This document shows, in pieces, positions 1-13,441 of a DNA stretch of 13,441 bases (positions are counted from its first letter, which is position 1; every line of letters begins with the position of its first letter). The DNA is taken from the NCBI GenBank assembly GCA_036676495.1, contig JAKFCT010000096.1, forward strand, positions 1 to 13,441. The letters run 5' to 3'. This DNA is from Candidatus Sericytochromatia bacterium. GTDB lineage: Bacteria > Cyanobacteriota > Sericytochromatia > S15B-MN24 > UBA4093. Position numbers and translations under genes: made by a program. Under the pieces are notes generated by a model. That model saw nothing but the letters and a program-made list of their open reading frames with translations. It was not told the origin of the DNA and did no database searches.

Positions 1-940
1 AGAGCTCGGGGTTCTGGCGCAGGTATTCCTTGGCTCCCTCGCGGCCCTGGCCGATCTTGTCGGAGCCGTAGGAGAACCAGGAGCCGGACTTGTTGACGAT
101 GCCGTGCTCGACGGCCATGTCGAGGACGCAGCCCTGGCGGCTCACGCCTTCTCCGAAGATCAGGTCGAACTCGGCGACGCGGAACGGGGGCGAGACCTTG
201 TTCTTGACGACCTTGGCCTTGACGCGGTTGCCGATTTCCAGGCCGTCCTTCTTGAGGGTCTCGATGCGGCGGACCTCGATGCGGACGGAGGAGTAGAAGC
301 GCAGGGCGCGGCCGCCGGTGGTGACCTCGGGGTTGCCGAACATGACGCCGACTTTTTCGCGAAGCTGGTTGATGAAGATGACGATGGCGTTGGACTTGCC
401 GATGGTGGCGGTCAGCTTGCGCAGGGCCTGACTCATGAGGCGGGCTTGCAGGCCGACGTGGGTGTCGCCCATGTCGCCTTCGAGCTCGGCCTTGGGAACG
501 AGGGCGGCGACGGAGTCGACGACGATGATGTCGACGGCGGCGGAGCGCACCAGGGCGTCGGCGATCTCGAGGGCTTGTTCGCCGGTATCGGGCTGGGAGA
601 CGAGCAGGTTGTCGATGTCGACGCCCAGGCGGCGGGCGTACTGGGGATCCAGGGCGTGCTCGGCATCGATGAAGGCGGCGACGCCGCCGGCCTTCTGGAC
701 CTCTGCGACCACCTGCAGGCTGACGGTGGTTTTACCGCCGGACTCGGGGCCGTAGATCTCGACCACGCGGCCGCGCGGCAGGCCGCCGACGCCGAGGGCG
801 ATGTCCAGGGGCAGAATTCCGGTGGGCACGGATTCGACCTGCATGCGAGCGGAGTCGCCCAGCTTCATGATCGATCCCTTGCCGAACTGCTTCTCGATGC
901 CTGCGAGCGCGAGCTCGAGCGCTTTCATACGATCCGACAT
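1..940 (-). CDS. recA: Recombinase RecA (5' ~313 codons; 3' end outside window)
   Basis: Absent from the ORF track because it runs off the edge. Manual translation from ATG at 940: [28 protein letters not shown]...[21 protein letters not shown]...[10 protein letters not shown]...[12 protein letters not shown]...[20 protein letters not shown]...[14 protein letters not shown]...[36 protein letters not shown]...[13 protein letters not shown]-like AAGAGG upstream. Confidence 0.99.
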
Positions 941-965
941 CCAATACCTCTTCTCACGGGAACGC

Positions 966-1050
966 CCGTGGCTGATTAAGAAAACCGTGGCTGATTAAGA
1001 AACCGTGGCGGGTGGGGGCGCCTGCGGCTGATGGGGGCGCCTGCGGCTGA
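966..1050. repeat. Composite ~19-bp tandem repeat array in the recA leader
   Basis: CCGTGGCTGATTAAGAAA(A) at 966-984 and 985-1002, partial CCGTGGC at 1003-1009, then TGGGGGCGCCTGCGGCTGA exactly twice (1013-1031, 1032-1050). Both unit types share GGCTGA. Confidence 0.9.
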
Positions 1051-1072
1051 CGGGGAGGATAAACCGAAGCTC

Positions 1073-1082
1073 CAGTATACCA
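1073..1082 (-). promoter_or_regulatory. Extended -10 element (TGgTATACT) for recA
   Basis: Minus strand reads TGGTATACTG about 135 nt upstream of the recA ATG; no clear -35. The same GGTATACTG 9-mer lies upstream of two other genes in the window. Confidence 0.55.
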
Positions 1083-1311
1083 GGGACGGGGCTGGAAGGC
1101 GGTGTCGCCCGTGCTTGAGGCGGGAGAAGGGGTGGGCATGCGGGCCCCGCGGGACCCGTCAAAACCCCCGAGGAACTTGGGTCAGATCGACCATACGGAG
1201 GCATGCGAGCGACCCGCTAGGATGGGCATGTTACATTTCTTAACGGTTGCTCGCAATCAGGGGTTTCGGAGAACGGAGCGCCGGTGATTCGGGCGAGAGG
1301 AGGGCCGGACG

Positions 1312-1491
1312 ATGATTGAAGCGGAAGTGCATCGCAACGACGAAATCCTCATGCAGCGGACCTACTACGAACCGTCCCTTTCCCTGGAGATGGTTTTGAA
1401 GCAGCTCGAGATGTACATCGTCGCCGAGCAGCTCAACAATTCCGGGGAATGCCTCCTCCGGGTCCGTTTCGGCAACCTGTCCAAGCAATAA
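1312..1491 (+). CDS. Small hypothetical protein, 59 aa (MIEAEVHRNDEILMQRTYYEPSLSLEMVLKQLEMYIVAEQLNNSGECLLRVRFGNLSKQ)
   Basis: Just below the apparent 60-aa ORF-track cutoff. Strong SD GAGAGGAGG ~8 nt before ATG 1312, mostly G/C third positions, protein-like composition, fills the recA-thiL gap, followed by a hairpin. Confidence 0.75.
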   Translation: MIEAEVHRNDEILMQRTYYEPSLSLEMVLKQLEMYIVAEQLNNSGECLLRVRFGNLSKQ

Positions 1492-1511
1492 GTCGTGTCC
1501 GAGGGTCCTGA

Positions 1512-1539
1512 GCCGGCTCGCTGCGCCATGCGGGCCGGC
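1512..1539. terminator. Stem-loop between the convergent small ORF and thiL
   Basis: GCCGGCTCGC-N8-GCGGGCCGGC, 10-bp stem with one G.U on the + transcript; no U-tract. Confidence 0.4.
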
Positions 1540-1547
1540 CTCCACGG

Positions 1548-2603
1548 CTAGGGGGCCGGCTTCCCCCCGAAGTGCTGGAAGGCATTTTGAGATCTCAAGG
1601 GCTCGGCGTGACCGTTCCGCTCCAGGACGGCGATCGCGGGCCCTTTGCCCATGCGGCCGACCACCCAGACCTTCCCGCCGACGGCTTCCACCGCGCGGGT
1701 CACGGCCAAGAGTCCCTCCGGCTCTACGCTGAAGACCAGGTTGTAGTCCTCGCCCCCCCAGAGCCCCCAGTCGAGCGGATCGACCTTCGCATGGGCCGCG
1801 AGCCTCCTCAGGGGCTGGGAAAGCGGCAGGCGATCCGCTTCCAAGCTCACGGTCACCTGGTTCGCCTGCGCCAGGATCAGTGCGGAGCGCCCCAGGCCAT
1901 CCGAGTTGTCGAGCACGGCGACGCGGAAGCCCGACTGGGCCAGGGCCCGGCCTTCCGCCACGTGCGGGCGCGGCTGACGGTGCGCCCGCGTGAGGGCGTC
2001 CCTTTCGGCGTCGCTGAGCGGGACGTTGCCCGCAGCTTCGCCGAGCGGGGCGTCGCCCGCGTGTTCGAGCAGCCAGAGACCGGCCGCCGACTCCCCGACG
2101 GGACCCGTGACGCAGACCCAATCGCCGGCCTGTGCGCCCGAACGCAGCAAGGGGCGCTCGGCTTCTCCCACCACGGTGACGGAAACCATCAGGGGGCCCG
2201 GTGAGCCGGTGGTATCCCCTCCGACGATGGCGAGCCCGACGCTGCGCGAGCCTTCCGCCACTCCCCGGTAGAGCTCCTCGACCCACGCGGCGGGGCAGTC
2301 CTTGGGAAGGGCCACGCTGACGGTGGCCCAGCGGGGCAGGGCTCCCATGGAGGCGACGTCCGAGACGTTGACGGCGATGGCTTTCCAACCGAGCTCGCGG
2401 GCCGAGGTGGTCCGGCGCCGGAAGTGGATGTCCTCGACCAGGATATCCGTGGTGGTGACGGCCTGCATGCCGGGCGTCAGGGTGGTGACCGCCGCGTCGT
2501 CCCCGATCCCGACCCAGCCCTCGGGCATCGGGACGTCGGCAAGCGTTTCCGAGATGAGGGCGATCGCCCGATCCTCGCCAAGCTGTGCGAGCGTGGGTTC
2601 CAT
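1548..2603 (-). CDS. thiL: Thiamine-monophosphate kinase
   Basis: GEDRAI, GIGDDAA, TTDILVEDIHF, GWKAIAVNVSDVASMGA, GGDTT, DNSDGL, GGEDYNLVF motifs; 351 aa. Confidence 0.97.
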   Translation of the reverse strand: MEPTLAQLGEDRAIALISETLADVPMPEGWVGIGDDAAVTTLTPGMQAVTTTDILVEDIHFRRRTTSARELGWKAIAVNVSDVASMGALPRWATVSVALPKDCPAAWVEELYRGVAEGSRSVGLAIVGGDTTGSPGPLMVSVTVVGEAERPLLRSGAQAGDWVCVTGPVGESAAGLWLLEHAGDAPLGEAAGNVPLSDAERDALTRAHRQPRPHVAEGRALAQSGFRVAVLDNSDGLGRSALILAQANQVTVSLEADRLPLSQPLRRLAAHAKVDPLDWGLWGGEDYNLVFSVEPEGLLAVTRAVEAVGGKVWVVGRMGKGPAIAVLERNGHAEPLRSQNAFQHFGGKPAP

Positions 2604-2753
2604 GACGCGCTTCCTTCTAGAGTCGGTTCCGTCGTTGCGAGCCCCCCTAATCTACTGCCTCCCCTCCCCCCGGACAAGGCCCCGCTCCTTCTTTCTCAGG
2701 TTTGGACGACGGTTTTCGGCGCGTGCAGGCTTGCTCGGAAGGGGATCTCCAGG

Positions 2754-2783
2754 ATTAAATAAATCTTAACCTCGGCATAAGTC
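2754..2783 (+). promoter_or_regulatory. Three 8-bp direct repeats at 11-bp period (Pho-box/OmpR-family-like site)
   Basis: ATTAAATA-aat-CTTAACCT-cgg-CATAAGTC; the middle unit equals the cyanobacterial Pho-box unit CTTAACCT; AT-rich patch in GC-rich DNA, ~60 nt upstream of 2841. Confidence 0.4.
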
Positions 2784-2840
2784 AGCCCCGGGGTCTGGGC
2801 CCGGATAAGTCTCGTTAAGAGGCTGTACCGGAGGAGTTCC

Positions 2841-3347
2841 ATGAGCTGGATCAACGAGCGGCAAGAAGCGAAGTTCAACCGGTTGCGGAACGATCCGCAC
2901 TACCGTCCGATCGTCGATGCCGTCCGCCAGGTTCAAAAGGATGGCGTCGCCCCCGCCACCGTCGTCCAGCAAGCCGTCCGCGCCACCCGCGACCAGTACG
3001 TCGCCTCCGGCCGCAAGATCGACCAAGAGGATATCCGTCGCGATGCCTTCCTGGCCGCCACCGCCGCCAGCATCGAAGCGCCTTACAGCCTTGATGGCCT
3101 CCCCGAGGGCAACGACAAGACCAAGCACTACTTCTGGAGCGGCGCCTTCGCCGCCAAGGTCGATCAGACCCTCGACGCCCTGCGGATCATCCCCCAGGGC
3201 CTCCGCGAATCCGTCGCGGTCGGCAGCACCCTCTTCGTGGGCTGGCTCAAGGAAGTCGCCGACATCTTCACCACGGGCTACAGCCGCGAGGATCTCGTCG
3301 CCGATCGCCTGGGCGCCAAGAGCCCCTTCGAGGTCGTGGTCTCATGA
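2841..3347 (+). CDS. YfiM/DUF2279(VanZ-like)-domain protein
   Basis: SD GGAGGAG. C-terminal DKTKHYF...GWLKEVAD...GYSREDLVADRLG matches the DKxxH / KExxD / SxxDLxxDxxG pattern recalled for YfiM-like proteins. Stop overlaps the next start (ATGA). Confidence 0.7.
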   Translation: MSWINERQEAKFNRLRNDPHYRPIVDAVRQVQKDGVAPATVVQQAVRATRDQYVASGRKIDQEDIRRDAFLAATAASIEAPYSLDGLPEGNDKTKHYFWSGAFAAKVDQTLDALRIIPQGLRESVAVGSTLFVGWLKEVADIFTTGYSREDLVADRLGAKSPFEVVVS

Positions 3348-4327
3348 TCCGCCGCACGCTCTTCACCTTCTTGACGGCTTCCTTGCTCGCAGGCTGCGGC
3401 ACGGGGCTTCCCGGCACCAGCCAGCCCTATGCCGCTCCCCAGTTCACCCTCGCTCCCGGCTGGGCCGCGAGCCCCGCAGCCACGCTGGATGCGCCCCGGG
3501 TGGCGAGCTTGGTCTCCCGTAAGGCGGGCGGCTTCGCGCTCGCCTACGATACCCAGAAGCTCGGCGGCAAGGATGTCTTCGTGACGCTCAGCTCGGACGG
3601 TCAGCGCTGGAGCGCCCCCGTGGTCGTCGGCAAGACCCGCCGCACCGAGGAATCCCCCGCCCTCTGGGAGGACGCTTCGGGCAAGCTTCACCTGATCTAC
3701 TCCGGCAACGTGTCGGGAGGCTTCCAGCTTTACGCCGCGTCCTCGATGGATGGGACGACCTGGGACGAGCCCGTGGTCATCACCAACGAAGACGAGCAGG
3801 CGAAAACCCCCGCCATCACCCGCACTCCCAAGGGCGTGGCCTTGGCCTACCAGACCATGGGCGGGTCCTGCGAGGTGATGACCAGTTCGGACGGGGAAGT
3901 CTGGGGCCTGGCGCGCCGGATCGACGTCTCGGGCGGGGACCCGGCGATTGCCCACGACGGCGAAGGCCTGCGCGTGGTCTACCACCGCAACGAAAAGCTT
4001 TACGAGCGCGTCGAGCGCCAGGGTGTCTGGTCGGATGCCGTCCAGGTGCCGGGTTCGGCGGCGATGCGGGAACCGGCGATCGCCCGGATCTCCGGCACGC
4101 TCACGCTCGCATACAGCACGCTCTCCTCGGACGGCACCTGGAAGCTCGTCGCCCGGGAAGCTGGCCCCTCGGGATGGGGGCAGGAACAGGACCTGGTTCA
4201 AGGGCCCGACGATCATGGATTCCCCAGCCTGGCCGAAGGCCCGAACGGTGGATCCTGGCTCGCTTGGGGTATAAGTAGGCTAACCGAGGAGCGGGGGATT
4301 TTCGTCGCCCGTTCGGGCGGCCGGTAG
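3344..4327 (+). CDS. Lipoprotein with Asp-box (BNR) repeats, sialidase-like beta-propeller
   Basis: Signal MIRRTLFTFLTASLLAG-C (lipobox LAGC); Asp-box-like SSDGQRW, SMDGTTW, SSDGEVW, SSDGTW; repeated 'PAI/PAL' blade starts. Confidence 0.85.
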   Translation: MIRRTLFTFLTASLLAGCGTGLPGTSQPYAAPQFTLAPGWAASPAATLDAPRVASLVSRKAGGFALAYDTQKLGGKDVFVTLSSDGQRWSAPVVVGKTRRTEESPALWEDASGKLHLIYSGNVSGGFQLYAASSMDGTTWDEPVVITNEDEQAKTPAITRTPKGVALAYQTMGGSCEVMTSSDGEVWGLARRIDVSGGDPAIAHDGEGLRVVYHRNEKLYERVERQGVWSDAVQVPGSAAMREPAIARISGTLTLAYSTLSSDGTWKLVAREAGPSGWGQEQDLVQGPDDHGFPSLAEGPNGGSWLAWGISRLTEERGIFVARSGGR

Positions 4328-4358
4328 CGGTCACCCATCCGCGGAAAGGGACGGAGAA

Positions 4359-5636
4359 ATGAGCGTTGTGGAAACGACCCTGATGACGAAGCGCCGCCTG
4401 GGCGAGGTCCTGGTTGACGGCGAGTTCATCTCGCCCTCGGACCTCGATCGGGCTCTCGATGAGCAGAAGCGCACCAACGAGCGCCTCGGCGAGGTTCTCA
4501 AGCGCCTTGGCGTCCTCTCCGACATGGAGCTCAAGGCCGTGCTCGCCAGCCAGGCCGACCTCACCGATGCCGACGACGTGGCCGGCGTCCGCCAGCGCCT
4601 CGGCGATCTCTTGCTCAAGAGCAAGCGCATCACCTCCCGCCAGCTCAACCGCGCCCTCGACGAGCAGAAGCGCACCAACGAGCGCCTCGGCGAGGTCCTG
4701 GTCCGCTTCAACCTGATCAGCCCCTACGAGCTCGAGGCCGTCCTCGCCCTCCAGGAGGACATGTCCAGCGGAGCGATGGCCGCCCGCTTCATGCTCGGCG
4801 AGATCCTGGTCGCCACCGGCACCATCTCCCGCAAGCAACTCGAACATGCCCTTGCCGACCAGCGGCTGACCAAGCGCCAGATCGGCGAGATCCTGGTCGA
4901 TGCCGGGATGGTCAAGCCCTCCTTGATCTCCGAGGCCCTGAAGATCCAGTCCAAGCTCGTGGCCGCCTCCCTGGTCGCCATGCTCGCGACCGGCGCCCTC
5001 AGCGGTTGCGGCCTCACGCCCATCACCGGATCGATCAACGACGGCCCCCGCCAGGGCATCGTCTCGCAGTACCGCGACGGCTCGGGCATCCTCGAGTACC
5101 GCACGACCCAGAACGCCACCAAGCGCTCGGCGACCACGGTCTACGCCAGCGGTGCGGTGGTCGTCAACGACGTGCCCTTCTTCGAGCAGGACGCGCAGGA
5201 CAACACCTGCGCCCAGGCGGCGATGTCGGTGGTGATGAACTACTGGGGCAAGCAGACCACCTACTCGAAGGTGGTCCACGAGTCCAACCGCTTCAACCTT
5301 CCCACCAGCCCCCAGACCGTGGAGACCTACCTGAAGCACAACGGCCTGAAGGTTCAGCCCTACCGCCAGGGCAAGATTTCCTTCCTGCGGAGCCTGGTCG
5401 ACCAGGGCCGCCCCCCGATGGTCCTCCTGCAGTTCGGCAACTCCGAGCACTGGGTCGTCGTGGTCGGCTACAACCAGTCCCAGAAGTCGATCATCATGCA
5501 CGACTCGATCGACGGCGCCTTCAGCGAGATGTCCGAGGCCGAGTTCGTCGGCAAGTGGCAGAACAAGATGATGACCGGCATCCCCGTGGTCGGAGGCGCC
5601 AACTACGAGGGCCTCATCATCGATATCCAGGGCTAG
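4359..5636 (+). CDS. Triple-MshEN (c-di-GMP-binding) + internal lipobox signal + C39-like cysteine peptidase
   Basis: Six 24-aa RLGxxLxxxGxIxxxxLxxALxxQ-type motifs in three pairs with 5-aa linkers (KRTNE, KRTNE, RLTKR). Then SKLVAASLVAMLATGALSG-C217, then VPFFEQ..NTC284AQAAMSVVMNYWG...H364WVVVVGY...HD382S. Confidence 0.85.
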   Translation: MSVVETTLMTKRRLGEVLVDGEFISPSDLDRALDEQKRTNERLGEVLKRLGVLSDMELKAVLASQADLTDADDVAGVRQRLGDLLLKSKRITSRQLNRALDEQKRTNERLGEVLVRFNLISPYELEAVLALQEDMSSGAMAARFMLGEILVATGTISRKQLEHALADQRLTKRQIGEILVDAGMVKPSLISEALKIQSKLVAASLVAMLATGALSGCGLTPITGSINDGPRQGIVSQYRDGSGILEYRTTQNATKRSATTVYASGAVVVNDVPFFEQDAQDNTCAQAAMSVVMNYWGKQTTYSKVVHESNRFNLPTSPQTVETYLKHNGLKVQPYRQGKISFLRSLVDQGRPPMVLLQFGNSEHWVVVVGYNQSQKSIIMHDSIDGAFSEMSEAEFVGKWQNKMMTGIPVVGGANYEGLIIDIQG

Positions 5637-5712
5637 CTCCCCTTTTCGATCCCAGGATAACGCTCGCTTCTTGAGGGCGTTTGGCGCCCGGATTAACCGC
5701 AAATGAACCCGC

Positions 5713-5745
5713 CGCGAGGCCCGGAGAGATTCTCCGGGCCTCGCG
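5713..5745. terminator. Perfect 15-bp hairpin after the peptidase operon
   Basis: CGCGAGGCCCGGAGA-gat-TCTCCGGGCCTCGCG; no U-tract. Confidence 0.6.
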
Positions 5746-5769
5746 ATCCGCCACGGCGGCCGAGGGGTG

Positions 5770-5797
5770 TTGACTTGAGGCGAAGCTACGCTATAAT
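5770..5797 (+). promoter_or_regulatory. Sigma70-type promoter of tRNA-Val
   Basis: TTGACT (5770-5775), 16-bp spacer, TATAAT (5792-5797), 22 nt before the tRNA. Confidence 0.85.
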
Positions 5798-5819
5798 GAG
5801 ACTCTCAAGCATTCAACTT

Positions 5820-5891
5820 GGGCGTATAACTCAGCGGTAGAGTACTACCTTCACACGGTAGGAGTCACTGGTTCGAATCCAGTTACGCCCA
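5820..5891 (+). tRNA. tRNA-Val (anticodon CAC), CCA not encoded
   Basis: Acceptor GGGCGTA/TACGCCC + discriminator A; D arm ACTC-AGCGGTA-GAGT; anticodon arm CTACC-TTCACAC-GGTAG; T arm ACTGG-TTCGAAT-CCAGT. Confidence 0.97.
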
Positions 5892-5896
5892 CTTAG

Positions 5897-5941
5897 AAGC
5901 GGATTTCAGGTCTTCGGACCCGGAATCCGCTTTTCGCTTTT
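5897..5941 (+). terminator. Rho-independent terminator after tRNA-Val
   Basis: AAGCGGATTTCAGGTC-TTCG-GACCCGGAATCCGCTT: ~15-bp stem, C(UUCG)G tetraloop, followed by TTCGCTTTT. Confidence 0.85.
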
Positions 5942-6293
5942 GAACTCCTTGGCCGCGAAAGCCAGTAAATCAAAGGGTTTCCGGTACTCCGGCTCGACTT
6001 TGCCATCTCAGACCTCACCCATGTCTGGGAACTCTACACCTAGGGAAAGCCATCCGATGCACGGTCCTGAACCTCAAACGGTTCTTCAAACTTGCGGGAA
6101 GACAGATGAGGCCAGCTTGGGGACAGAGCAAAAGAGCAAGGGGTATGGCCGGGTGAATGGCCCCACCCCGATACCAAATCCCCGAAAAACCTGAATCGGG
6201 TAAATGATGCTCTCCTGCTCAAAGGGCCACCAATCATTTACGAGCGTTACCATCAAGCCTACGCAGTACAATTTAGTGATCACCTCACTGAAA

Positions 6294-6656
6294 CTACCTG
6301 CCTTGGGCATTATTCTGAATTCCCCATAATAAGTAACCACTAATCAAAAAGAATAGAAAAGAAGCAGGAATTGAAAGAAGTGCGAACAAAATACTTAGAC
6401 CATGCCCAGAATAATACAGGACAATATTAATAACGATGTCAATTGATGCAAAAAATAGAGCTCGTTGCCATATGATAGAGGGGCTCGATGGCGCGATCAT
6501 CCATTCTTTAAAACGTGGCGACATAGCTTGCAGTAACAAACCGCTCGCCACGACTATAATTGCCATTACGACAAGCACCACAATCACAATAATAACGTGC
6601 ATATAAAAAGGTAAAGGACCTGACAGGTAGCTAATAGTATCTTGAAGCCATCGCAT
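6294..6656 (-). CDS. Small integral membrane protein (3 predicted TM helices), candidate immunity protein
   Basis: SD AGGAG 7 nt before ATG; hydrophobic segments FYMHVIIVIVVLVVMAIIVVASGLLL, ALFFASIDIVINIVLYY, LSILFALLSIPASFLFFLISGYLLWGI. The immunity role is inferred from context only. Confidence 0.7.
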   Translation of the reverse strand: MRWLQDTISYLSGPLPFYMHVIIVIVVLVVMAIIVVASGLLLQAMSPRFKEWMIAPSSPSIIWQRALFFASIDIVINIVLYYSGHGLSILFALLSIPASFLFFLISGYLLWGIQNNAQGR

Positions 6657-6696
6657 ACTAGTCTCCTACGAACTTACAAGTAACCAAGAACAAGCT

Positions 6697-7116
6697 TTAC
6701 ATACTATTTTTGTAGAACTTATCAACGCTCTCTTTTCCGTTAATTAGCACGTACACATTATTTACGCCCGCAACTCTAAGATTGTATGCGAGTACTTTTG
6801 CTGAATGGTCATCAGCACATCCACAAAATGGAATTACAACATCAGGATTTCGCATATTAATTTCGCTAAGAATAGTTTCTTGCTTGTATTTTATTGCGCC
6901 GCGAACAGTCTCGATATTCCCAGTCAAGTCAATTAGGAGTACGCGCTTTCCTTCGTTTTCCATAGAGCGCCAAGAGTCATAATCAGTCGTTATGACTTCA
7001 TTCATTTGGACTTCTGTCGGAAACTTGATTTGCGAAATCCCATCGGGCGGTCGATTTTTGCTGCAGGAAATCAGAATCGGAAGACTTAACAGCAAAATAA
7101 TTCGAATGATATTCAT
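6697..7116 (-). CDS. Rhodanese-like domain lipoprotein (139 aa from ATG 7116)
   Basis: MNIIRIILLLSLPILIS-C signal/lipobox; VLLIDL...VRGAI...VVIPFCGCADDHSAKVLAYNLRVAGVNNVYVLING matches the rhodanese pattern. The upstream track start (7209) lies inside a hairpin. Confidence 0.8.
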   Translation of the reverse strand: MNIIRIILLLSLPILISCSKNRPPDGISQIKFPTEVQMNEVITTDYDSWRSMENEGKRVLLIDLTGNIETVRGAIKYKQETILSEINMRNPDVVIPFCGCADDHSAKVLAYNLRVAGVNNVYVLINGKESVDKFYKNSM

Positions 7117-7153
7117 GGTGATATCGACTTTCTTAAGTCCAACTCCATACAAC

Positions 7154-7215
7154 ACAAAGTTGCGCGAGCCAGCATTCGTGAAAAACGCAATTCCCGCTGA
7201 CTCACACAACTTTGT
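7154..7215 (-). other. Long intergenic RNA stem-loop
   Basis: 20-bp arms 7154-7173 / 7196-7215; the three non-Watson-Crick positions are all G.U pairs on the minus-strand transcript; 22-nt loop with a small inner hairpin. Confidence 0.75.
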
Positions 7216-7226
7216 CGTTATTATTG

Positions 7227-7529
7227 CTACCTCGGCACTTGATTAAAAGAGTCGATTACAGAAGGAATTGCATAACAACTCATTAGCACTCGCGCTCCAG
7301 CAAGTCCAACCGTAGCAAGCATACACGCCACAAAATAAGGCGGCGCTACAAGGGCGGGCCAACATTGTTGTGTTCCTGACACAAGCGGCCAACCACCGTT
7401 CCAAAGCAAACAAAACCACGGAATTGCCGGAAGATTTTGAGTGTTGTAATTGCTCGCAAGGGGTAATGAAGCTGACAATTCTTGCTTAATCTTCGAATTT
7501 ACGTCGGCCAGCATTTCATCCGAAATCAC
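7227..7529 (-). CDS. Hydrophobic 4-Cys peptide domain; probable 3' half of a frameshifted gene with 7537-7935
   Basis: No SD before GTG 7529; its frame is open back to ~7553, overlapping the upstream ORF end; contains C-x15-C-x12-C-x15-C in a hydrophobic region after ...SNYNTQ. Confidence 0.6.
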   Translation of the reverse strand: MISDEMLADVNSKIKQELSASLPLASNYNTQNLPAIPWFCLLWNGGWPLVSGTQQCWPALVAPPYFVACMLATVGLAGARVLMSCYAIPSVIDSFNQVPR

Positions 7530-7536
7530 CGGCGGA

Positions 7537-7935
7537 CTAGCGAAGCGCGGCCTCTAAGTCGGGAATGGCATTAAAATTATCGATATGTTCCGCCGGAATC
7601 TGGAAGTCGATACTCCTAGTCCCCACTGGCGTAACAACCATATATCTGATCGTATCAATCTTACCCGACCCGTTCGCATCCAGAGCTCGATCGTAGAAAA
7701 TACTAAATGAATTTTCGTCCAGGCTTTGAATTCGTTGTTCATCTAATGATGCGCGCCGAACACTGATGTCACCCATATTCTGAACACTAATGTGAATTCC
7801 CGAAGTAACCTCCGGAACGACTTCCGATTGGATTATAGGGACACGAGGCTCCTGTAGAGGAAGGCCTGCTTGGGGTGACGTGCAGGACACCGTTGAGAAA
7901 AGTGCTACGAGTGCTATCGCTATTGCTTTTTTCAT
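7537..7935 (-). CDS. Lipoprotein; probable 5' half of a ~235-aa precursor (7227-7935) split by a one-base frameshift
   Basis: SD AAAGG, signal MKKAIAIALVALFSTVS-C. Removing one base near 7540-7553 fuses ...IPDLEAA to FASPPVISDEML... Confidence 0.7.
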   Translation of the reverse strand: MKKAIAIALVALFSTVSCTSPQAGLPLQEPRVPIIQSEVVPEVTSGIHISVQNMGDISVRRASLDEQRIQSLDENSFSIFYDRALDANGSGKIDTIRYMVVTPVGTRSIDFQIPAEHIDNFNAIPDLEAALR

Positions 7936-8019
7936 ATATGCCTTTTCTATTCTGCGATAAGTCTGTAAACCAATGGGCTATTCCTGCAGGAGACCCTCTC
8001 ACACTTGGGGAAACAACCA

Positions 8020-8063
8020 AGTATGATATTATGGATTATGATGTCAAGAAAATTCAACGTCAA
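8020..8063 (-). promoter_or_regulatory. Two overlapping sigma70-type promoters for the island operon
   Basis: TTGACG(8063-8058)-17-CATAAT(8040-8035) and TTGACA(8047-8042)-16-CATACT(8025-8020). The inverted repeat TCACACTTGG-N8-CCAAGTATGA (7999-8026) overlaps the second -10. Confidence 0.6.
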
Positions 8064-8199
8064 CAGTGATGGGGGCTTTTGGTGAGGAAGCATGATCGAT
8101 TCGCCTCCAGTAACCGTTCATGGGGTCTAATTTTGGCGCTATCACTTGATCCTAGTGACGTTAAAGAAGGGGCTGATTTTAGGCGAGGAGGGCTAAAGC

Positions 8200-8366
8200 C
8201 AGGCAAATACGTGGATGAGAGCAGCTTGAACCGCTTCTTGAAATACCGGACACGACCTCGATGCCCCAGCGCAAAGGCACCAAGCGAAGCACCGTGGGCA
8301 CGTTCACCAGCACGGAGCATATCCAGCACTTCATGTCATCCCGGTTGGCCTGGAACCGAAGACTGA
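8200..8366 (+). pseudogene. Possible eroded C-terminal fragment of a tyrosine integrase
   Basis: Fragments HDL (8251), GH (8296) and HVIP (8332) in one frame and KAPSEA in another, echoing HDLR...KxVSExLGH...YxHVxP; sits just before att-like sequence. Weak. Confidence 0.25.
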
Positions 8367-8432
8367 CTTTGCCCCTTCATTTGCTTCTAATTTAGAGGTT
8401 GAGGAAGGTCTCAATTTCGCTTAATTTGGAAG

Positions 8433-8477
8433 GTTCGATTCCCGTAGGGGTACTAGGCACCCCTACGGGAATCGAAC
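8433..8477. repeat. Perfect 19-bp inverted repeat of a tRNA T-arm/3'-end fragment
   Basis: GTTCGATTCCCGTAGGGGT-actaggc-ACCCCTACGGGAATCGAAC; each arm reads T-loop + T-stem + acceptor start, tRNA-Glu-like and not matching this tRNA-Val. Confidence 0.9.
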
Positions 8478-8523
8478 TAAGGGCGCCTTACTATGGATCA
8501 TAAGGATGTCGAAATGGTTCTAA

Positions 8524-8544
8524 GTTCGTCCAGCCAAGCCCACT
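8524..8544 (+). repeat. Degenerate attR-like copy of the tRNA-Val 3' end
   Basis: GTTCG--TCCAGCCAAGCCCACT vs tRNA 5871-5893 GTTCGAATCCAGTTACGCCCACT (18 of 23 positions), immediately followed by a terminator. Confidence 0.7.
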
Positions 8545-8583
8545 GCCCCGGAAGCGAGACATCGCTTCCGGGGCTTTTGCTTT
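8545..8583 (+). terminator. Rho-independent terminator (probably the original tRNA terminator; may also end the convergent cytochrome transcript)
   Basis: GCCCCGGAAGCGA-gaca-TCGCTTCCGGGGC perfect 13-bp stem + TTTTGCTTT. Confidence 0.85.
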
Positions 8584-8607
8584 GAGGGAGCGAATTCCGC
8601 AAGCCTC

Positions 8608-9096
8608 TCATCGGCCCGAGGCATGCCCCTTCAGCATTGCGCCCAGGCGCCCGCGATTCTTCGGGACCAGGAAGAGCATGGCCAGGTGCACGGCGACGAA
8701 GGCCGCGAGCGCCAAGGCGCCGTAGCCATGGCCGTTGCGCAGGAGGCTCTTGAGGAACTTGCCCATCGGCAGCGCATAGCGAAGCTCGAGCAGGACCCCG
8801 CTCACGGCGAGGAAGGCCAGGACGACCTGCGTATAGCGTAGCGCGAGGCGCTGCCCCGGGTTCCATCCATGCGCCGGGGCCGATCGCTTCCAGAGTGCGA
8901 GGTAGAAGGCGCAGCCTCCGAACAAGAGCAGGCCCCCGATCCAGACGTGAGCCCAGGCGATCGCATTGACTCCCAGCACTTCCCACTCGTCGTCGCCACG
9001 CCAAATGAACCATCCCGAGGCACCCAGGAGGCTCACGGCGATCGCCGTCGTCCAGTGCAAGAGGCGATCCGCGAGACTGAAACGTTCGGCCTTCAT
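8608..9096 (-). CDS. Di-heme cytochrome b, FdnI/HyaC-like (162 aa from ATG 9096)
   Basis: RFSLADRLLHW, AWAHVW, WNPGQR (NxGQK-like), HGYGALALAAFVAVH: four His ligands in 4 TM segments; SD GAGG just after the cytochrome c stop. Confidence 0.85.
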   Translation of the reverse strand: MKAERFSLADRLLHWTTAIAVSLLGASGWFIWRGDDEWEVLGVNAIAWAHVWIGGLLLFGGCAFYLALWKRSAPAHGWNPGQRLALRYTQVVLAFLAVSGVLLELRYALPMGKFLKSLLRNGHGYGALALAAFVAVHLAMLFLVPKNRGRLGAMLKGHASGR

Positions 9097-9104
9097 GAGG
9101 GCCT

Positions 9105-9488
9105 CTACCGGACGTACTTCTTCACATGGGCCTGCCATGTGGACGGCACGGCACCGAAACCGCGGTCAGGCAGCTGCTGCACGAAGGCCAGCAGGTCGTT
9201 CAGCTCCGGGGTGGAGAGGCTCATCTCCTGATACTTGAGGAACTTGAGCGTCTTCTTCTGGATCTTGGCCTCGTTGAAGCGCTCGTTCACGAGATCCGGG
9301 ATGTCCTTTCCCTTGAACGTCTCGTTCGTCGTCAGGCCCGCCGGGTGACAGGTCATGCAAGCCTTGCCGTTGGCTCCCTTGGTCATGAAGATCTTCTTGC
9401 CGTTTTCCACGTTTCCGCTGAAGGCGAAGGCTGGGGATGCGAGCGACGCCACCAAGGCGGCGAGGGGGACGAGGTGCAATCCGTTCAT
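9105..9488 (-). CDS. Secreted monoheme cytochrome c (127 aa from ATG 9488)
   Basis: SD AAGGAGG; signal peptide ending AFA; GNVENGKKIF...CMTCH; candidate axial Met in YQEMS; C-terminal 'ELNDLLAFV' helix. Confidence 0.9.
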   Translation of the reverse strand: MNGLHLVPLAALVASLASPAFAFSGNVENGKKIFMTKGANGKACMTCHPAGLTTNETFKGKDIPDLVNERFNEAKIQKKTLKFLKYQEMSLSTPELNDLLAFVQQLPDRGFGAVPSTWQAHVKKYVR

Positions 9489-9662
9489 CACTGCCTCCTT
9501 CTTTAGGAATGAAAGCGCTCCCGTTTCATCCCCATGTAAGCGACCGGCCGTGAAATCGCAGTGAAGTCCAAGAGTCGACGTCTCGTCATCCTCCACGCCC
9601 AGCGGATCCTACCGGCGGTCAAAGCGTCGTCGTGAGGGTCGGGACGCCACGCCGGCGGTCGA

Positions 9663-9671
9663 GGTATACTG
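9663..9671 (+). promoter_or_regulatory. -10 element (GGTATACTG) upstream of the kinase
   Basis: TATACT at 9665-9670, ~85 nt before the start; the same 9-mer occurs at recA and the YdjC-family gene. Confidence 0.45.
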
Positions 9672-9756
9672 GCATGGTCGGCCGCTTTTCCTCGGCTCGA
9701 CCTGTCGACATCAACGGAACGCGCAGCGAAACCCACGGCATGGTTTCGGGGAGTGA

Positions 9757-11004
9757 GTGACGGTGACGATCCCAGCTAGCACGACTGATCCGGTCTACAT
9801 GAGGGGCATGGAGCGCCTCGTCGAGGTGATCCAGGAACTCTCGATGGCGCGTAGCCTCGAGCGCGTGATGGAAATCGTGCGGCACGCGGCGCGCGAGATC
9901 GTGGGGGCGGACGGCGCCACCTTCGTGCTACGCGATGGAGAGCAGTGTTACTACGCCGATGAAGAGGCGATCGCCCCGCTCTGGAAGGGACGCCGCTTCC
10001 CCCTCGATGCCTGCATCAGCGGCTGGGCGATGCGCAACAAGGCCTCGGTGCGCATCGAGAACATCTACGAGGACGCGCGCATTCCCCTGGAAGCTTACGA
10101 GCCGACCTTCGTGCGCAGTCTGGTCATGGTGCCGATCCGGCAACTGGACCCGATCGGGGCCATCGGAACGTACTGGGCCGGCCGGCACGCGGCCCCCGAC
10201 TACCAGGTCCGGCTGCTCCAAAGCCTCGCCGACAGCACGTCGATCGCCTTGGAAAACGTCTCGATCCTGCAGGACCTCGACCAGCGGATCCGGGCACGCA
10301 CCGCCGAACTCGAAGCCGCCAACCTCGAACTCGGTGCCTTCAATTCAGCCGTGTCGCATGACCTGCGCAATCCGCTCAATGCCATCCTGGGCTTCTCGGA
10401 GTTCCTCTTGATGAGCAATGGCGAGCAGCTCTCGCCCCAGGTGAAACAGGGGCTGGAAACCATCGCCCGGTCATCAGGCAGAATGCGGCACCTCATTGAA
10501 GATCTGATGCGGCTTTCGTCGGTGGCCTACGGAGAGCTGAAGCACGAGTCCGTCGACCTTTCAGCACTGGCCGGCGGGATCTTGGATGAGTTTCGGCATG
10601 CGGATCCCGAGCGTTCCGTGCAGGTCCAGGTGGAGCCCGGCCTGGTCGTGACCGGGGATCCGGGGCTCTTGCAGATCGCCCTGACGAACCTGCTCTCCAA
10701 TGCGTGGAAATACAGCTCCCAAGAGCAGGAGTCGCGCATCGAGGTCGGGCGCAAAACGGTCGACGGCGAGGCCGTTCTGTTCGTTCGGGACAACGGCATC
10801 GGCTTTGACATGGCGCAAGCCGATCGCCTGTTTCGCTCCTTTGCGCGTCTCAACTCGAGCAAGGAGTTCCAGGGGACGGGGATCGGGTTGGTGACGGTGC
10901 GACGCATCATCGAGCGCCATGGCGGTCGCATTTGGGCCGAGAGTCAACCGGGAATGGGAGCGACCTTCTTCTGGACCTGCCCCAACGCCGCCACGCCTCA
11001 GTGA
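9757..11004 (+). CDS. Cytoplasmic GAF-domain sensor histidine kinase
   Basis: N-terminal GAF (ADGATFVL...GRRFPLDACISGWAM...RSLVMVPI...GAIGTYW), H-box SHDLRNPL, N-box NLLSNAWKY, G1 DNGIGF, G2 GTGIGL, GATFF. No TM segment, no receiver. Start could be 9763. Confidence 0.95.
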   Translation: MTVTIPASTTDPVYMRGMERLVEVIQELSMARSLERVMEIVRHAAREIVGADGATFVLRDGEQCYYADEEAIAPLWKGRRFPLDACISGWAMRNKASVRIENIYEDARIPLEAYEPTFVRSLVMVPIRQLDPIGAIGTYWAGRHAAPDYQVRLLQSLADSTSIALENVSILQDLDQRIRARTAELEAANLELGAFNSAVSHDLRNPLNAILGFSEFLLMSNGEQLSPQVKQGLETIARSSGRMRHLIEDLMRLSSVAYGELKHESVDLSALAGGILDEFRHADPERSVQVQVEPGLVVTGDPGLLQIALTNLLSNAWKYSSQEQESRIEVGRKTVDGEAVLFVRDNGIGFDMAQADRLFRSFARLNSSKEFQGTGIGLVTVRRIIERHGGRIWAESQPGMGATFFWTCPNAATPQ

Positions 11005-11115
11005 GGCATCTGCCCAGGTAGGCCCGGCCTGAACATCGGCCCAGCCCACTTGAGCGCCGAGTTTGGGTCATCCGGAAACGGTGACATGAGGATCCGGTTC
11101 CGCCTTCTCCGATCC

Positions 11116-11124
11116 GGTATACTG
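11116..11124 (+). promoter_or_regulatory. -10 element (GGTATACTG) upstream of the YdjC-family gene
   Basis: TATACT at 11118-11123, ~30 nt before ATG 11155; supports the shorter start. Confidence 0.5.
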
Positions 11125-11154
11125 AGCGTGCAGCCGATCTGTCGAGAGTATGCC

Positions 11155-12198
11155 ATGCGTCCGAACATCCAACTCCTGGTCTTGATTACCGTGCTGGTAT
11201 CCGGGTGTTTGCCCGTCTGGAGCCGGCAAGCCGCCCAGTCCGAGGTTCCTGCGCACCCCACGGCGCCGCGTGCCTTGATCGTGAACGCCGATGACCTGGG
11301 GTTGAGCGAGGGCGTCACCAATGGCATCGTGCAGGCATGGCGCGAGGGGGTGGTGACCTCCACGTCGGCCCTCGTCAATCTCGAGGGGGCCATGGAGCGC
11401 ATCGTCTCGGCTCATCAGACGAATCCTCGCCTCCCGATTGGGCTGCACCTCAACGTTACGACCGGACGTCCGGTCTTGCCTCCCAGCCAGATCCCCACCC
11501 TGGTGGATTCAAAGGGCTATTTCTACGATCGTGATGCGCTCATCGAGCGGGCTCCTGACATTTCGCTCGCCGAGTTGAAGGCCGAACTGCGTGCGCAAGG
11601 AGAGCGGCTTCAGGCGGCAGGTATCCGCATCGATCACCTGGATTACCATGAGGGGATCTTGTTTCTATATTCCCCTTTCTTCCAGGTCGTCCGGGAGCTG
11701 GCTCGTGAATGGGCCGTTCCGGTGCGCCATCCGGTTCCCGAGACCCTTTACGGGCGCGTCACTTTTCCGGGGGGCGGAGGAAACTCCGGAATGATCTGGA
11801 AAATGATCGCCTTCGGGATCCTCCACCCCTTTCGTGCCTGGCAGATGATGCCGCACATGACCCCGGATGCCTACAAGCGACAAGCCGCCCTGCTCGCCGA
11901 AGAACGAACCCCAACGCCCGTCAGCTTCCTCGACGGCTTCTTTGGAGTCGCCACGGTCGAGGGCTTTGTCGGGATGTTGCCCCAACTCCCGCCGGGTATC
12001 AACGAGGTGGCCGTGCATCCTGGTCTCGTGGATGAGCCCCTGCGCAAATGGGGGGGCGGTTACGTGCAGTTGCGGGAGGCCGAGTTGGCCGTTCTGCTGG
12101 ATCCGCGCTTAAGGGAGGCGCTCGTCAGGAATCAGGTCGAACTGACGACCTTCTCCTCGCTCACCTCAAGGCCGGACGTCGTATCCGGCCGGCGCTAA
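11155..12198 (+). CDS. ChbG/YdjC/HpnK-family carbohydrate deacetylase with lipoprotein signal (347 aa)
   Basis: LIVNADDLG, GVVTSTS, IGLHLN, DHLDYH, EVAVHPG, REAEL motifs; N-terminus MRPNIQLLVLITVLVSG-C; SD GAGAG. Confidence 0.9.
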   Translation: MRPNIQLLVLITVLVSGCLPVWSRQAAQSEVPAHPTAPRALIVNADDLGLSEGVTNGIVQAWREGVVTSTSALVNLEGAMERIVSAHQTNPRLPIGLHLNVTTGRPVLPPSQIPTLVDSKGYFYDRDALIERAPDISLAELKAELRAQGERLQAAGIRIDHLDYHEGILFLYSPFFQVVRELAREWAVPVRHPVPETLYGRVTFPGGGGNSGMIWKMIAFGILHPFRAWQMMPHMTPDAYKRQAALLAEERTPTPVSFLDGFFGVATVEGFVGMLPQLPPGINEVAVHPGLVDEPLRKWGGGYVQLREAELAVLLDPRLREALVRNQVELTTFSSLTSRPDVVSGRR

Positions 12199-12219
12199 TC
12201 CCGGGAGGGTTTGGCTTCT

Positions 12220-12921
12220 TCACCAGACCCCAGGGAACAGGCGGTAGCGAACCTGCTTTCGGTAGTCGTCATAGCCTTCCAGCTGGTCTGCCAGCAGGCG
12301 TTCTTCTCCGAGGATGCGGAGGGCAAGCACGGCGATGATCAAGAGACCGAGCGCCAGCCCCCACCGTGAGCCGAGCAACAGCGGCGCTCCGAGGGTCATG
12401 GCGGTCGCCCCCAGGTACATCGGGTGGCGCACGAGGCGATAGACCCCTGACGAGACGACCTGCTGTCCGCGCTCCGCTTGAATCCGGACCATGGCGGAAG
12501 CGAACGTGTTGTCGGCCACGGCCCGGAACATGAAGAAGGATCCCAGCAGCAGCAGGACGCCCCCCAGCACCTGCCAGGCGACGGGGAAACCCGCCGTCCA
12601 GTGAAAGCGCCTGGCATCCAGGGGCATCAGGACGAACCACGCCATGAAGAGCACGGTGATGGCGACGAGGGCGACGCGATCCCAGGTCGGCTCTCCGCCC
12701 GTCCCGGGCCGGCGCGAGCGCTCGGCGAGCAAGGCGGGATCGCGCACGTAGAGGTAGCTGAGCGTCGCGAGGCAGAAGCCCGAGAACCACAGGCCGAAGG
12801 CCCAACCCGCGCCCCAGCGCCAATCCCCTCCCAAGCCCACGACCAGGATCGGGTACACGAACTGGCAAACGATCGCCAGGAAGAACTTCGGAAAGCTGGG
12901 ACGGCGGGGCGCGTCGGCCAT
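12220..12921 (-). CDS. Isoprenylcysteine carboxyl methyltransferase (ICMT/PEMT)-family membrane protein (233 aa from ATG 12921)
   Basis: SD GGGAGG; DPALLAERS, DARRFHW, NTFASAMVRIQAERGQQVVSSGVYRLVRHPMY, EERLL..QLEGYDDYRKQVRYRLFPGVW. Confidence 0.93.
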   Translation of the reverse strand: MADAPRRPSFPKFFLAIVCQFVYPILVVGLGGDWRWGAGWAFGLWFSGFCLATLSYLYVRDPALLAERSRRPGTGGEPTWDRVALVAITVLFMAWFVLMPLDARRFHWTAGFPVAWQVLGGVLLLLGSFFMFRAVADNTFASAMVRIQAERGQQVVSSGVYRLVRHPMYLGATAMTLGAPLLLGSRWGLALGLLIIAVLALRILGEERLLADQLEGYDDYRKQVRYRLFPGVW

Positions 12922-13177
12922 GAGTTCCTCCCGCGCGCGGCGCTGACGCGCGTTCCTCCCGCATGGTAGGCGAAAAGGCGACAATCCGGATCGGCCAGAT
13001 CTTGCGAGAGATCTCGTTGACCGTGCTTTCGCGCGCACTCCTTCGGCACGAGGGAGCGTCTATCCCACCAGGGAACGATAAATCGGCCACTATGATCGAT
13101 AGTTCTTCCATTGATGCGCGTTGCCCGTCTCTGCGAAGCTGGAGATTCGTGAATTTCCCCGCTTTTTAGGAGATCGC

Positions 13178-13441
13178 ATGTCACGCATTCTTCTCACCGC
13201 CTTGCTGGGCGTGGGCTTGCTCACCGGCTGCCCCGCGCCAGGAGCCGACACTTCCGACAAGCCGGGCGAGACGCCGCCCTTCAAGACGCAAACGAGCCTC
13301 ACGCTCAGCCTCTCGGGGGCCGTCCTCCGGGTGGCCCAGGTCGAGACGGCGCTCTTCAAGCTCGAAGGGGATACGGAAGTGGCCGTGCCCAGTACCGCCC
13401 TCACGCATGACCGGGGCGAGCTGCCTCGGGCCCTTCCCTTG
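13178..13441 (+). CDS. Lipoprotein, partial (runs off the window)
   Basis: Not in the ORF track. SD AGGAG; MSRILLTALLGVGLLTG-C-PAPGADTSDKPGETPPFKTQTSLTLSLSG... open to the window end. Confidence 0.8.
   Translation, partial: MSRILLTALLGVGLLTGCPAPGADTSDKPGETPPFKTQTSLTLSLSGAVLRVAQVETALFKLEGDTEVAVPSTALTHDRGELPRALPL

Follow-up and report, generated by a model that had tools for sequence, protein, structure and literature searches.

Three MshEN modules ahead of a predicted lipoprotein signal and a C39-like peptidase in a Candidatus Sericytochromatia bacterium

The locus and its MshEN modules

We analyzed a stretch of 13,441 nucleotides from a Candidatus Sericytochromatia bacterium (contig JAKFCT010000096.1 of assembly GCA_036676495.1, positions 1 to 13,441), hereafter the window, and in it the open reading frame (ORF) at 4359-5636 of the plus strand, whose product appears to combine an array of cyclic di-GMP (c-di-GMP) receptor modules, a lipoprotein-type signal and an exported cysteine peptidase. 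The GC content of the window is about 65%. Its minus strand contains recA and thiL, and three closely packed plus-strand genes follow one another: orf168 (2841-3347), a gene for a 327-residue lipoprotein (3344-4327) and the target ORF. The latter is open over its whole length and is preceded by a GGAG sequence a few bases 5' of its ATG at 4359. Its closest public relatives are found in metagenome-assembled genomes labelled Candidatus Sericytochromatia. The anatomy of the product had been proposed earlier from the sequence alone (the original prediction), and all of its elements were found where they had been placed, the sole correction being that module 2 starts at R80 and not at residue 79. 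The features of the target are the following:

4359-5636, plus strand: whole coding sequence of the putative precursor (three MshEN modules, signal, C39-like domain), 425 residues and a stop codon
4395-4553, plus strand: MshEN_N module 1, residues 13-65, 62.8 bits, with Arg at both motif starts (R13, R42)
4596-4754, plus strand: MshEN_N module 2, residues 80-132, 65.2 bits, with R80 and R109
4791-4949, plus strand: MshEN_N module 3, residues 145-197, 58.4 bits, with M145 and Q174 in place of Arg
4950-5006, plus strand: predicted signal segment, residues 198-216, made up of S198-K199, a hydrophobic core and the lipobox positions -3 to -1 (L214-S215-G216)
5007-5009, plus strand: codon of Cys217, the predicted lipobox +1 position, conserved in 36/36 homologues and, by sequence comparison, homologous to the Cys of plain paralogues
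5010-5144, plus strand: tether, residues 218 to about 262; both its length and its sequence are hypervariable, and model confidence is low where it begins
5145-5633, plus strand: C39-like papain-fold peptidase domain, residues ~263-425, assigned from Pfam matches, invariant residues and a predicted local distance difference test score (pLDDT) >90

The NCBIfam profile NF053729, a 53-position MshE-related c-di-GMP motif, matched the target protein three times (whole-protein E value 5e-49), at 4395-4553, 4596-4754 and 4794-4949, and the bit scores given above, obtained in a genome-wide search with this profile, compare with a cut-off of 38. The three modules share a layout of 24 + 5 + 24 residues, which agrees with the three tandem pairs of a 24-residue motif and the five-residue linkers described in the original prediction. 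Module 1 aligned with residues 7-66 of Vibrio cholerae MshE (PDB 5HTL, E value 3.8e-7), and the array aligned with Thermus thermophilus PilF (PDB 6F8L, E value 1.2e-12). The MshEN assignment is based on the NCBIfam hidden Markov model (HMM) and on these PDB sequence matches, not on Pfam: the profile matches foreseen by the original prediction were obtained for MshEN (as NF053729) and for Peptidase_C39 and C39_2, and not for Pfam T2SSE_N, which gave no match in the target up to an E value of 1, only a weak match to DUF4388 being seen. Homologues P0003, P0004 and P0007 are named 'bacteriophage N4 adsorption protein B' by NCBI; this label is misleading for a C39-like lipoprotein and was evidently inherited from the MshEN part of NfrB.

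The residues equivalent to L10, G11, L25, L29, Q32, L39, G40, L54, L58 and Q61 of V. cholerae MshE are kept, or replaced only by Ile in the case of Leu, in all three modules. The Gly positions of the modules are invariant (36/36) in an alignment of the query with 35 homologues, selected from 120 listed and with identities down to 32%, to which all counts out of 36 in this text refer. An Arg, or in the relaxed motif K, P or N, is expected at the first position of every half-motif; modules 1 and 2 have this Arg, and it is replaced in module 3, whose halves begin with MLG and QIG, as had been pointed out in the original prediction. This absence of both Arg residues speaks against c-di-GMP binding by the whole array, as does the fact that the strict and relaxed 24-residue regular expressions of Wang et al. 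literally match none of the six half-motifs, owing to one-position shifts. According to the passages of PMC5013675 that deal with these residues, changing Arg9 of MshE shifted the affinity at most fivefold, against more than tenfold for the hydrophobic residues, and MshEN_N of MshE by itself binds c-di-GMP at 0.35 μM. Because the isolated MshEN_N subdomain binds, the missing MshEN_C subdomain would be no obstacle to binding by the target. Likewise, module 3 cannot be written off, because its Leu, Gly and Gln contacts are kept and the effect of Arg9 is at most fivefold; the earlier suggestion that this module shields the signal instead found no support, given that all of these ligand-contact positions are retained. 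Modules 1 and 2 very probably bind c-di-GMP.

The N-terminal domain of GspE docks on GspL, and the MshEN array could also be a protein-docking domain that places the precursor at a membrane machine, and not a c-di-GMP sensor. The replaced Arg residues of module 3 would fit this possibility, and so would the loss of c-di-GMP binding in MshEN/T2SSE_N domains of some ATPases, such as XpsE, for which the relevant passages of PMC5013675 report a non-binder with the changes G11V, L29R, G40L, L54H, L58C and Q61V. However, changes of the XpsE type are absent from the target, the ten Leu, Gly and Gln contact positions are retained in all three modules and over the 36 homologues, and 19 GGDEF domains are encoded in the genome. 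We consider docking in place of sensing improbable.

The signal segment, the peptidase and other cargos

Directly behind the last module, Q197-S198-K199 is followed by LVAASLVAMLATGA and then by L214-S215-G216-C217, so that the signal-like segment, its Lys and the lipobox are present as first described. K199 precedes a 17-residue uncharged segment that closes in the lipobox L-S-G-C217, in agreement with the pattern [LVI][ASTVI][GAS]C, and the only strongly hydrophobic stretch of the protein begins at residue 200, where the hydrophobicity peak lies. In the alignment, C217 is invariant (36/36), column 199 contains Lys in 28 sequences and Arg in 8, and the lipobox positions follow the expected pattern: column 214 (-3) is Leu in 30 and Met in 5 (L/M in 35/36), and column 216 (-1) is Gly, Ala or Ser in all 36, with Gly in 31. 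We also examined a larger set of 159 sequences, which overlaps with the former and comprises 104 database proteins and the open frames of 55 loci (L013-L067; the weak, outside-group loci L068-L077 were left out). A strict filter detected the lipobox Cys in 143 of the 159, with Leu at -3 in 124, Thr or Ser at -2 in 111, Gly, Ala or Ser at -1 in 141 and Gly at +2 in 102; among the 16 misses, 14 carry the Cys after a shorter uncharged run and two (P0193 and L048) lack the N-terminus. When modules were counted with an HMM derived from those of the family itself, the lipobox Cys was present in all 137 module-bearing proteins (96 from the database and 41 locus frames), and in 127 of them it is located exactly 20 residues past the module end. 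The original prediction had made its case depend on the conservation of this Cys among homologues, which these counts establish.

Some members of the peptidase family have no MshEN module, and they occasionally share a genome with fused members, as in MAG_89, where the plain paralogue L055 occurs beside the fused L035, L037 and L039; across the family, the number of modules ahead of the signal varies from zero to four. In the plain paralogues (L053-L059, L062-L067, P0162, P0181, P0190 and others), the Cys is found 16-30 residues from the first start codon, with a basic residue and a hydrophobic run before it, and it is followed by the same C-x-P-P-x-V-P-x-Q motif as in many fused members. Since the plain paralogues carry this Cys in register and with the same downstream motif, comparison of the sequences identifies Cys217 as the homologue of the normal +1 cysteine of an ordinary lipoprotein. 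Lipidation of C217 is predicted as very likely, and cleavage before it, under at least some conditions, as fairly probable.

The original prediction had also contemplated that the peptidase might be translated separately from the internal Met184 (ATG at 4908), in which case it would be an ordinary lipoprotein and the long form would be incidental. Counted from Met184, the Cys would be at position 34, which is a normal distance. Nevertheless, this column contains Met in only 6/36 homologues, no Shine-Dalgarno-like sequence was found before the ATG at 4908, and over 90 homologues conserve the MshEN part at the protein level, making two separate products highly improbable. Self-cleavage by the C39 domain at G216-C217-G218, as at a double-glycine site, was considered and set aside, since positions -2 to +2 vary in the manner of a lipobox (T/S, G/A/S, C, G/A/S/K). 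Apart from the catalytic C284, no second conserved Cys that could form a disulfide with C217 was found in the 36-sequence alignment.

The tether behind C217 corresponds to indel-rich columns of the alignment (330-400, 36 sequences), and the mean pLDDT for residues 211-230 was 40-58. It leads to a domain that matched Pfam Peptidase_C39_2 at residues 271-383 (E value 7e-14, 53 bits against 24) and Peptidase_C39 at 277-406 (39.6 bits against 22). The catalytic residues C284 (codon at 5208-5210), H364 (5448-5450) and D382 (5502-5504), which the original prediction had singled out, and the oxyanion residue Q277 are all invariant (36/36). In Foldseek, the domain matched 3ERV, 3K8U and 6MPZ with a probability of 1.00, and also PCAT1; it groups with 3ERV, with LahT and with the peptidase domains of ComA and PCAT1. 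Pfam scans revealed no ABC transporter part in the target chain or beside the gene, and for this reason the domain is classed as C39-like and not as the peptidase of a peptidase-containing transporter. C39 proper stands at the N-terminus of ABC transporters that export bacteriocins, where it cleaves double-glycine leaders. A second copy of the peptidase was not found in the organism's own genome.

An AlphaFold2 model built on the 36 sequences (mean pLDDT 79.8, predicted TM-score 0.50) presented three helical modules and one unbroken helix, residues 187-215, running from module 3 into the hydrophobic segment, with low confidence at 204-220; the tether was poorly defined, and the C39-like domain was modelled with confidence (pLDDT >90). 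Transmission of a mechanical signal across the membrane to the enzyme is disfavoured by the tether, whose length and sequence differ greatly among homologues.

A profile-free search of 1.84 billion representative sequences gave 2842 matches, many of them limited to residues ~9-215 of the target. Of 237 collected proteins that have one or more modules followed by 30 residues or more, 96 belong to the C39 group and 141 have a different cargo. In 120 of the 141, a hydrophobic segment stands directly behind the last module. The profile of these segments, counted from the module end, consists of basic residues at +1/+2, a 13-residue hydrophobic core from +3 to +15, small residues at +18 (57%) and +20 (62%), which correspond to an AxA-type site, and charges from +21; judged by this profile, the segment is built like a Sec signal peptide that has such a site. 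Most of the other-cargo proteins are of the AxA type, and some have a lipobox (for example, ...LTACGGGG and ...MTGCGKGG). Among 25 chosen proteins that were scanned, the cargos were FN3/Big_7/DUF4082, beta-helix, CAP, doubled-CXXCH cytochrome and dockerin domains, all of them extracytoplasmic types. Whether the cargo varies behind the lipobox had been raised in the original prediction, and FN3/Ig, beta-helix, CAP and multihaem cytochrome cargos answer it. Because the cargos behind the array are of extracytoplasmic types, the orientation would be N-in, C-out, and because the same unit precedes varied exported cargos, the array and the signal can be regarded as a cassette.

Alternatively, residues 199-216 could be a permanent signal-anchor, an uncleaved transmembrane helix of a bitopic receptor-enzyme that passes the c-di-GMP signal outward to the peptidase, as LapD and LapG do but in one chain; Cys217 would then be conserved for lipidation without cleavage or for some other reason. 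Several observations favour an anchor or count against a cleavable lipoprotein signal. According to the usual (PROSITE-type) rule for lipoprotein signals, the Cys is within about 15-35 residues of the N-terminus, and position 217 is far beyond this range. The uncharged stretch measures 17 residues against 14 in plain paralogues, the distance from the module end to the Cys is fixed as described above, and the modelled helix continues from module 3 into the membrane segment. The best argument for an anchor is that the sequence of the h-region is unusually conserved across cargo families, with Leu at +3 in 112 of the 120 segments, Ala at +6 in 93 and Leu at +8 in 102; from the sequences, such a conserved and longer h-region is more in keeping with a transmembrane helix that persists than with a disposable signal. 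In addition, the other-cargo set was gathered by likeness to the N-terminal part of the target, which introduces an ascertainment bias in its profile. On the other hand, a variable tether of low model confidence cannot carry a conformational signal, the small -1 residue needed by the lipoprotein signal peptidase (Lsp) is kept in 141/143 sequences, and the AxA-type sites of the sister cargos follow a 13-residue core that is too short for a stable anchor. We therefore regard the permanent anchor as rather unlikely. The reading of the MshEN array as a cytoplasmic n-region of about 200 residues, belonging to a signal of the lipoprotein type that precedes an exported cysteine peptidase, as originally predicted, is supported by the invariant Cys, by its homology with the Cys of plain paralogues and by the unconserved Met184.

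Upstream genes, a predicted partner and the genome

The two genes upstream of the target are the following:

2841-3347, plus strand: orf168, with no family match, first gene of a cassette conserved in close relatives
3344-4327, plus strand: BNR/sialidase-like beta-propeller lipoprotein of 327 residues with an N-terminal lipobox, LAGC18

The propeller lipoprotein matched BNR_2 with 33 bits (cut-off 31.4) and gave weak sialidase matches in the PDB; its residues G17-C18-G19 are invariant (10/10). For orf168, no Pfam match was obtained and the NCBIfam matches were all sub-threshold. A propeller homologue is located directly upstream of the target homologue in 16/55 loci, all within L013-L029, which are the closer orthologues, and a homologue of orf168 is upstream in 6/55. 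In the neighbourhoods of distant paralogues that were examined (L035, L037, L039, L041, L047, L055 and L060), the propeller gene was not found, and there was no shared partner or common theme. Downstream of one of them, the four-module paralogue of locus L035, a 422-residue protein (L035:7651-8916) without a Pfam match shows, by eye only, papain-like contexts around a Cys and around a His farther along the chain.

The orf168 and propeller genes overlap by 4 nt (ATGA, 3344-3347), the propeller gene ends 31 nt ahead of the target start (4328-4358), and in some relatives (L018, L023 and L028) the propeller and target frames overlap. The overlaps and the 31-nt spacing suggest that orf168, the propeller gene and the target form one operon with coupled translation; a scan of 2500-6100 for terminators and promoters gave nothing useful on this point. 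Contigs from two RNA libraries of a single study (P4), which derive from a relative with 90-95% identity, cover 4195-4682, 4658-5025 and 5199-5636; one spans the junction with the upstream gene (4195-4481), and another runs from module 2/3 through the Cys codon (4658-5020); the lack of cover elsewhere carries no information. These contigs are a weak hint that the gene and the junction are expressed, and as they come from a relative, transcript starts, transcript ends or a single transcript cannot be read from them.

The complex of peptidase residues 240-425 with propeller residues 30-327 was predicted with an ipSAE of 0.81 (median of 0.86, 0.81 and 0.80), a score of model confidence and not a measurement, which limits its weight; the best of three controls gave 0.00. 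This mark was reached by 58/80 solved complexes and by 2/110 mismatched pairs, counts that are only rough and for which own alignments were used. Agreement between the runs extended to at least 95% of the contacts, and the pLDDT of the partner was at least 89. The modelled interface includes H364 and residues 384-390, which adjoin D382, so that the propeller lipoprotein is predicted to dock on the peptidase beside its active-site His. This predicted partnership is new in the present analysis.

The genome has one lgt gene (265.7 bits) and two lspA genes (141.5 and 132.9 bits), in addition to the 19 GGDEF matches mentioned above. As side observations, the two lspA genes of this 4.1-Mb genome are located at C34:28626-29081 and C47:48475-48930, and 38 MshEN-motif matches are distributed in about 21 open frames. 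Three of these frames are located at C9:5892-7472, C64:5235-7229 and C14:71092-73209: in one of the three, an MshEN module precedes a polytopic protein with an HEYGH metalloprotease motif, and the other two encode tetratricopeptide repeat (TPR) proteins in which one transmembrane segment comes after the MshEN modules.

Elsewhere in the window, a gene for tRNA-Val(cac) at 5820-5892 is preceded by a near-consensus promoter-like sequence, TTGACT-16-TATAAT (5770-5797). The stretch after this tRNA gene, within 5770-8500, has a GC content of 0.40-0.49, compared with about 0.65 around it; its ORFs matched no Pfam or PHROGs family, and no flanking direct repeats were found. From its composition and position, it is probably an acquired island next to tRNA-Val. 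Farther on (8608-9596, minus strand, and 9757-11004, plus strand), a gene of the cytochrome b561 type overlaps a small gene whose product has a signal peptide and a CxxCH motif; both are located next to a GAF-histidine kinase.

A possible mechanism and comparison with known systems

Taken together, these data lead us to favour, with some reserve, the idea that the target is a c-di-GMP-sensing prolipoprotein. The precursor would be inserted by Sec in an N-in, C-out orientation, with residues 1-197, that is, the three modules, remaining in the cytoplasm. Lgt would lipidate C217, and Lsp could cut between G216 and C217, freeing a lipid-anchored peptidase from the N-terminal piece of 216 residues. 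Binding of c-di-GMP to the array would act at the precursor stage, probably by fixing or shifting the unbroken helix by which the lipobox is kept at the membrane face; this would set the fate of the enzyme, which would either remain attached to the inner membrane or be set free as a mature lipoprotein, and the envelope peptidase would work with the beta-propeller lipoprotein encoded just upstream. That c-di-GMP gates the cut itself is a tentative proposal. Equally speculative is its extension to the sister families, in which the array and the helix would be a portable, second-messenger-gated signal peptide, gating Lsp in the target and signal peptidase I in proteins with FN3, cytochrome or pilin-like cargos. 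If this were true, a set of envelope proteins could be switched post-translationally between two states, a precursor tethered to the inner membrane and a mature form that is released, without new gene expression, and the cut would leave a tail-anchored c-di-GMP-binding fragment in the cytoplasm.

Bacterial signal peptides are regarded as short, disposable address tags. To our knowledge, all described c-di-GMP effectors act through cytoplasmic domains, membrane-embedded synthases or a separate transmembrane receptor such as LapD. A conserved family with a high-affinity c-di-GMP receptor array as the n-region of its lipoprotein signal would couple the biofilm messenger directly to the export or maturation of proteins. 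Sister families are built alike ahead of adhesin-like, cytochrome and pilin-like cargos, and the conserved design hints that the second messenger controls the maturation of an envelope enzyme. It would also provide a first functional handle on c-di-GMP signalling in the Sericytochromatia, the non-photosynthetic sister group of the cyanobacteria.

Signals with an extended N-terminal part that has its own function exist outside bacteria, one case being the signal peptide of the mouse mammary tumor virus (MMTV) protein Rem. The 'NtraC' model of vertebrate signals (PMC2447879) follows the same principle; unlike the target, these long signals are eukaryotic or viral, measure 40-150 residues and contain no arrays of ligand-binding domains. 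We found no bacterial signal n-region with folded domains in the literature searched.

With regard to the receptor part, the target shares with V. cholerae MshE (5HTL) and T. thermophilus PilF (6F8L) the same 53-residue two-motif module, which in PilF also occurs three times in tandem (PMC5013675). In MshE and PilF, however, the modules control an ATPase that belongs to their own chain, is cytoplasmic and serves secretion or a pilus, whereas the target has neither MshEN_C nor an ATPase, and its array continues into a lipoprotein-type signal and then into the exported enzyme. NfrB, a glycosyltransferase activated by c-di-GMP (PMC8669469), resembles the target in having an MshEN module on a membrane protein that acts on the envelope. 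In NfrB, the sensor is C-terminal and follows a polytopic enzyme facing the cytoplasm; in the target, the sensor stands ahead of a single signal segment, and the output domain is extracytoplasmic. A third case is PA3740 of Pseudomonas aeruginosa, a c-di-GMP-binding MshEN-domain protein in the relevant passage of PMC5013675, which is set apart by description, with a single module and a different cargo; the passages on PA3740 in PMC5013675 and PMC12943098 do not treat its topology.

Searches of the literature on MshEN with C39, with lipoprotein signal peptides or with an internal lipobox, on T2SSE_N signals and on c-di-GMP with lipoprotein signal peptidase yielded no description of such a design, although Supplementary Tables 3-5 of PMC5013675, which give architectures of MshEN proteins, may include this one; in this respect, our searches agree with the original prediction, which knew of no such system. 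The parts are known, namely the c-di-GMP receptor module and the peptidase fold, and what is undescribed in the literature searched is a receptor array as the n-region of a lipoprotein signal.

The peptidase domain resembles C39 and C39-like peptidases (ComA, PCAT1, LahT and 3ERV of Bacillus anthracis) in its papain-like fold and its Gln-Cys-His-Asp set. It differs from ComA and PCAT1 in that it is not joined to an ABC transporter and is predicted to be lipid-anchored and extracytoplasmic.

In LapD-LapG of Pseudomonas fluorescens, a cytoplasmic c-di-GMP receptor controls the location of a periplasmic cysteine protease and hence its access to the substrate. There, receptor and protease are distinct proteins, LapD being of the HAMP-GGDEF-EAL type and LapG of the BTLCP/C93 type; neither type was listed when the target protein was scanned against Pfam and NCBIfam. 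In the target, in contrast, a single chain holds both the sensor (MshEN) and the protease (C39-like), with the lipobox separating the two. The likeness to LapD-LapG is one of logic only.

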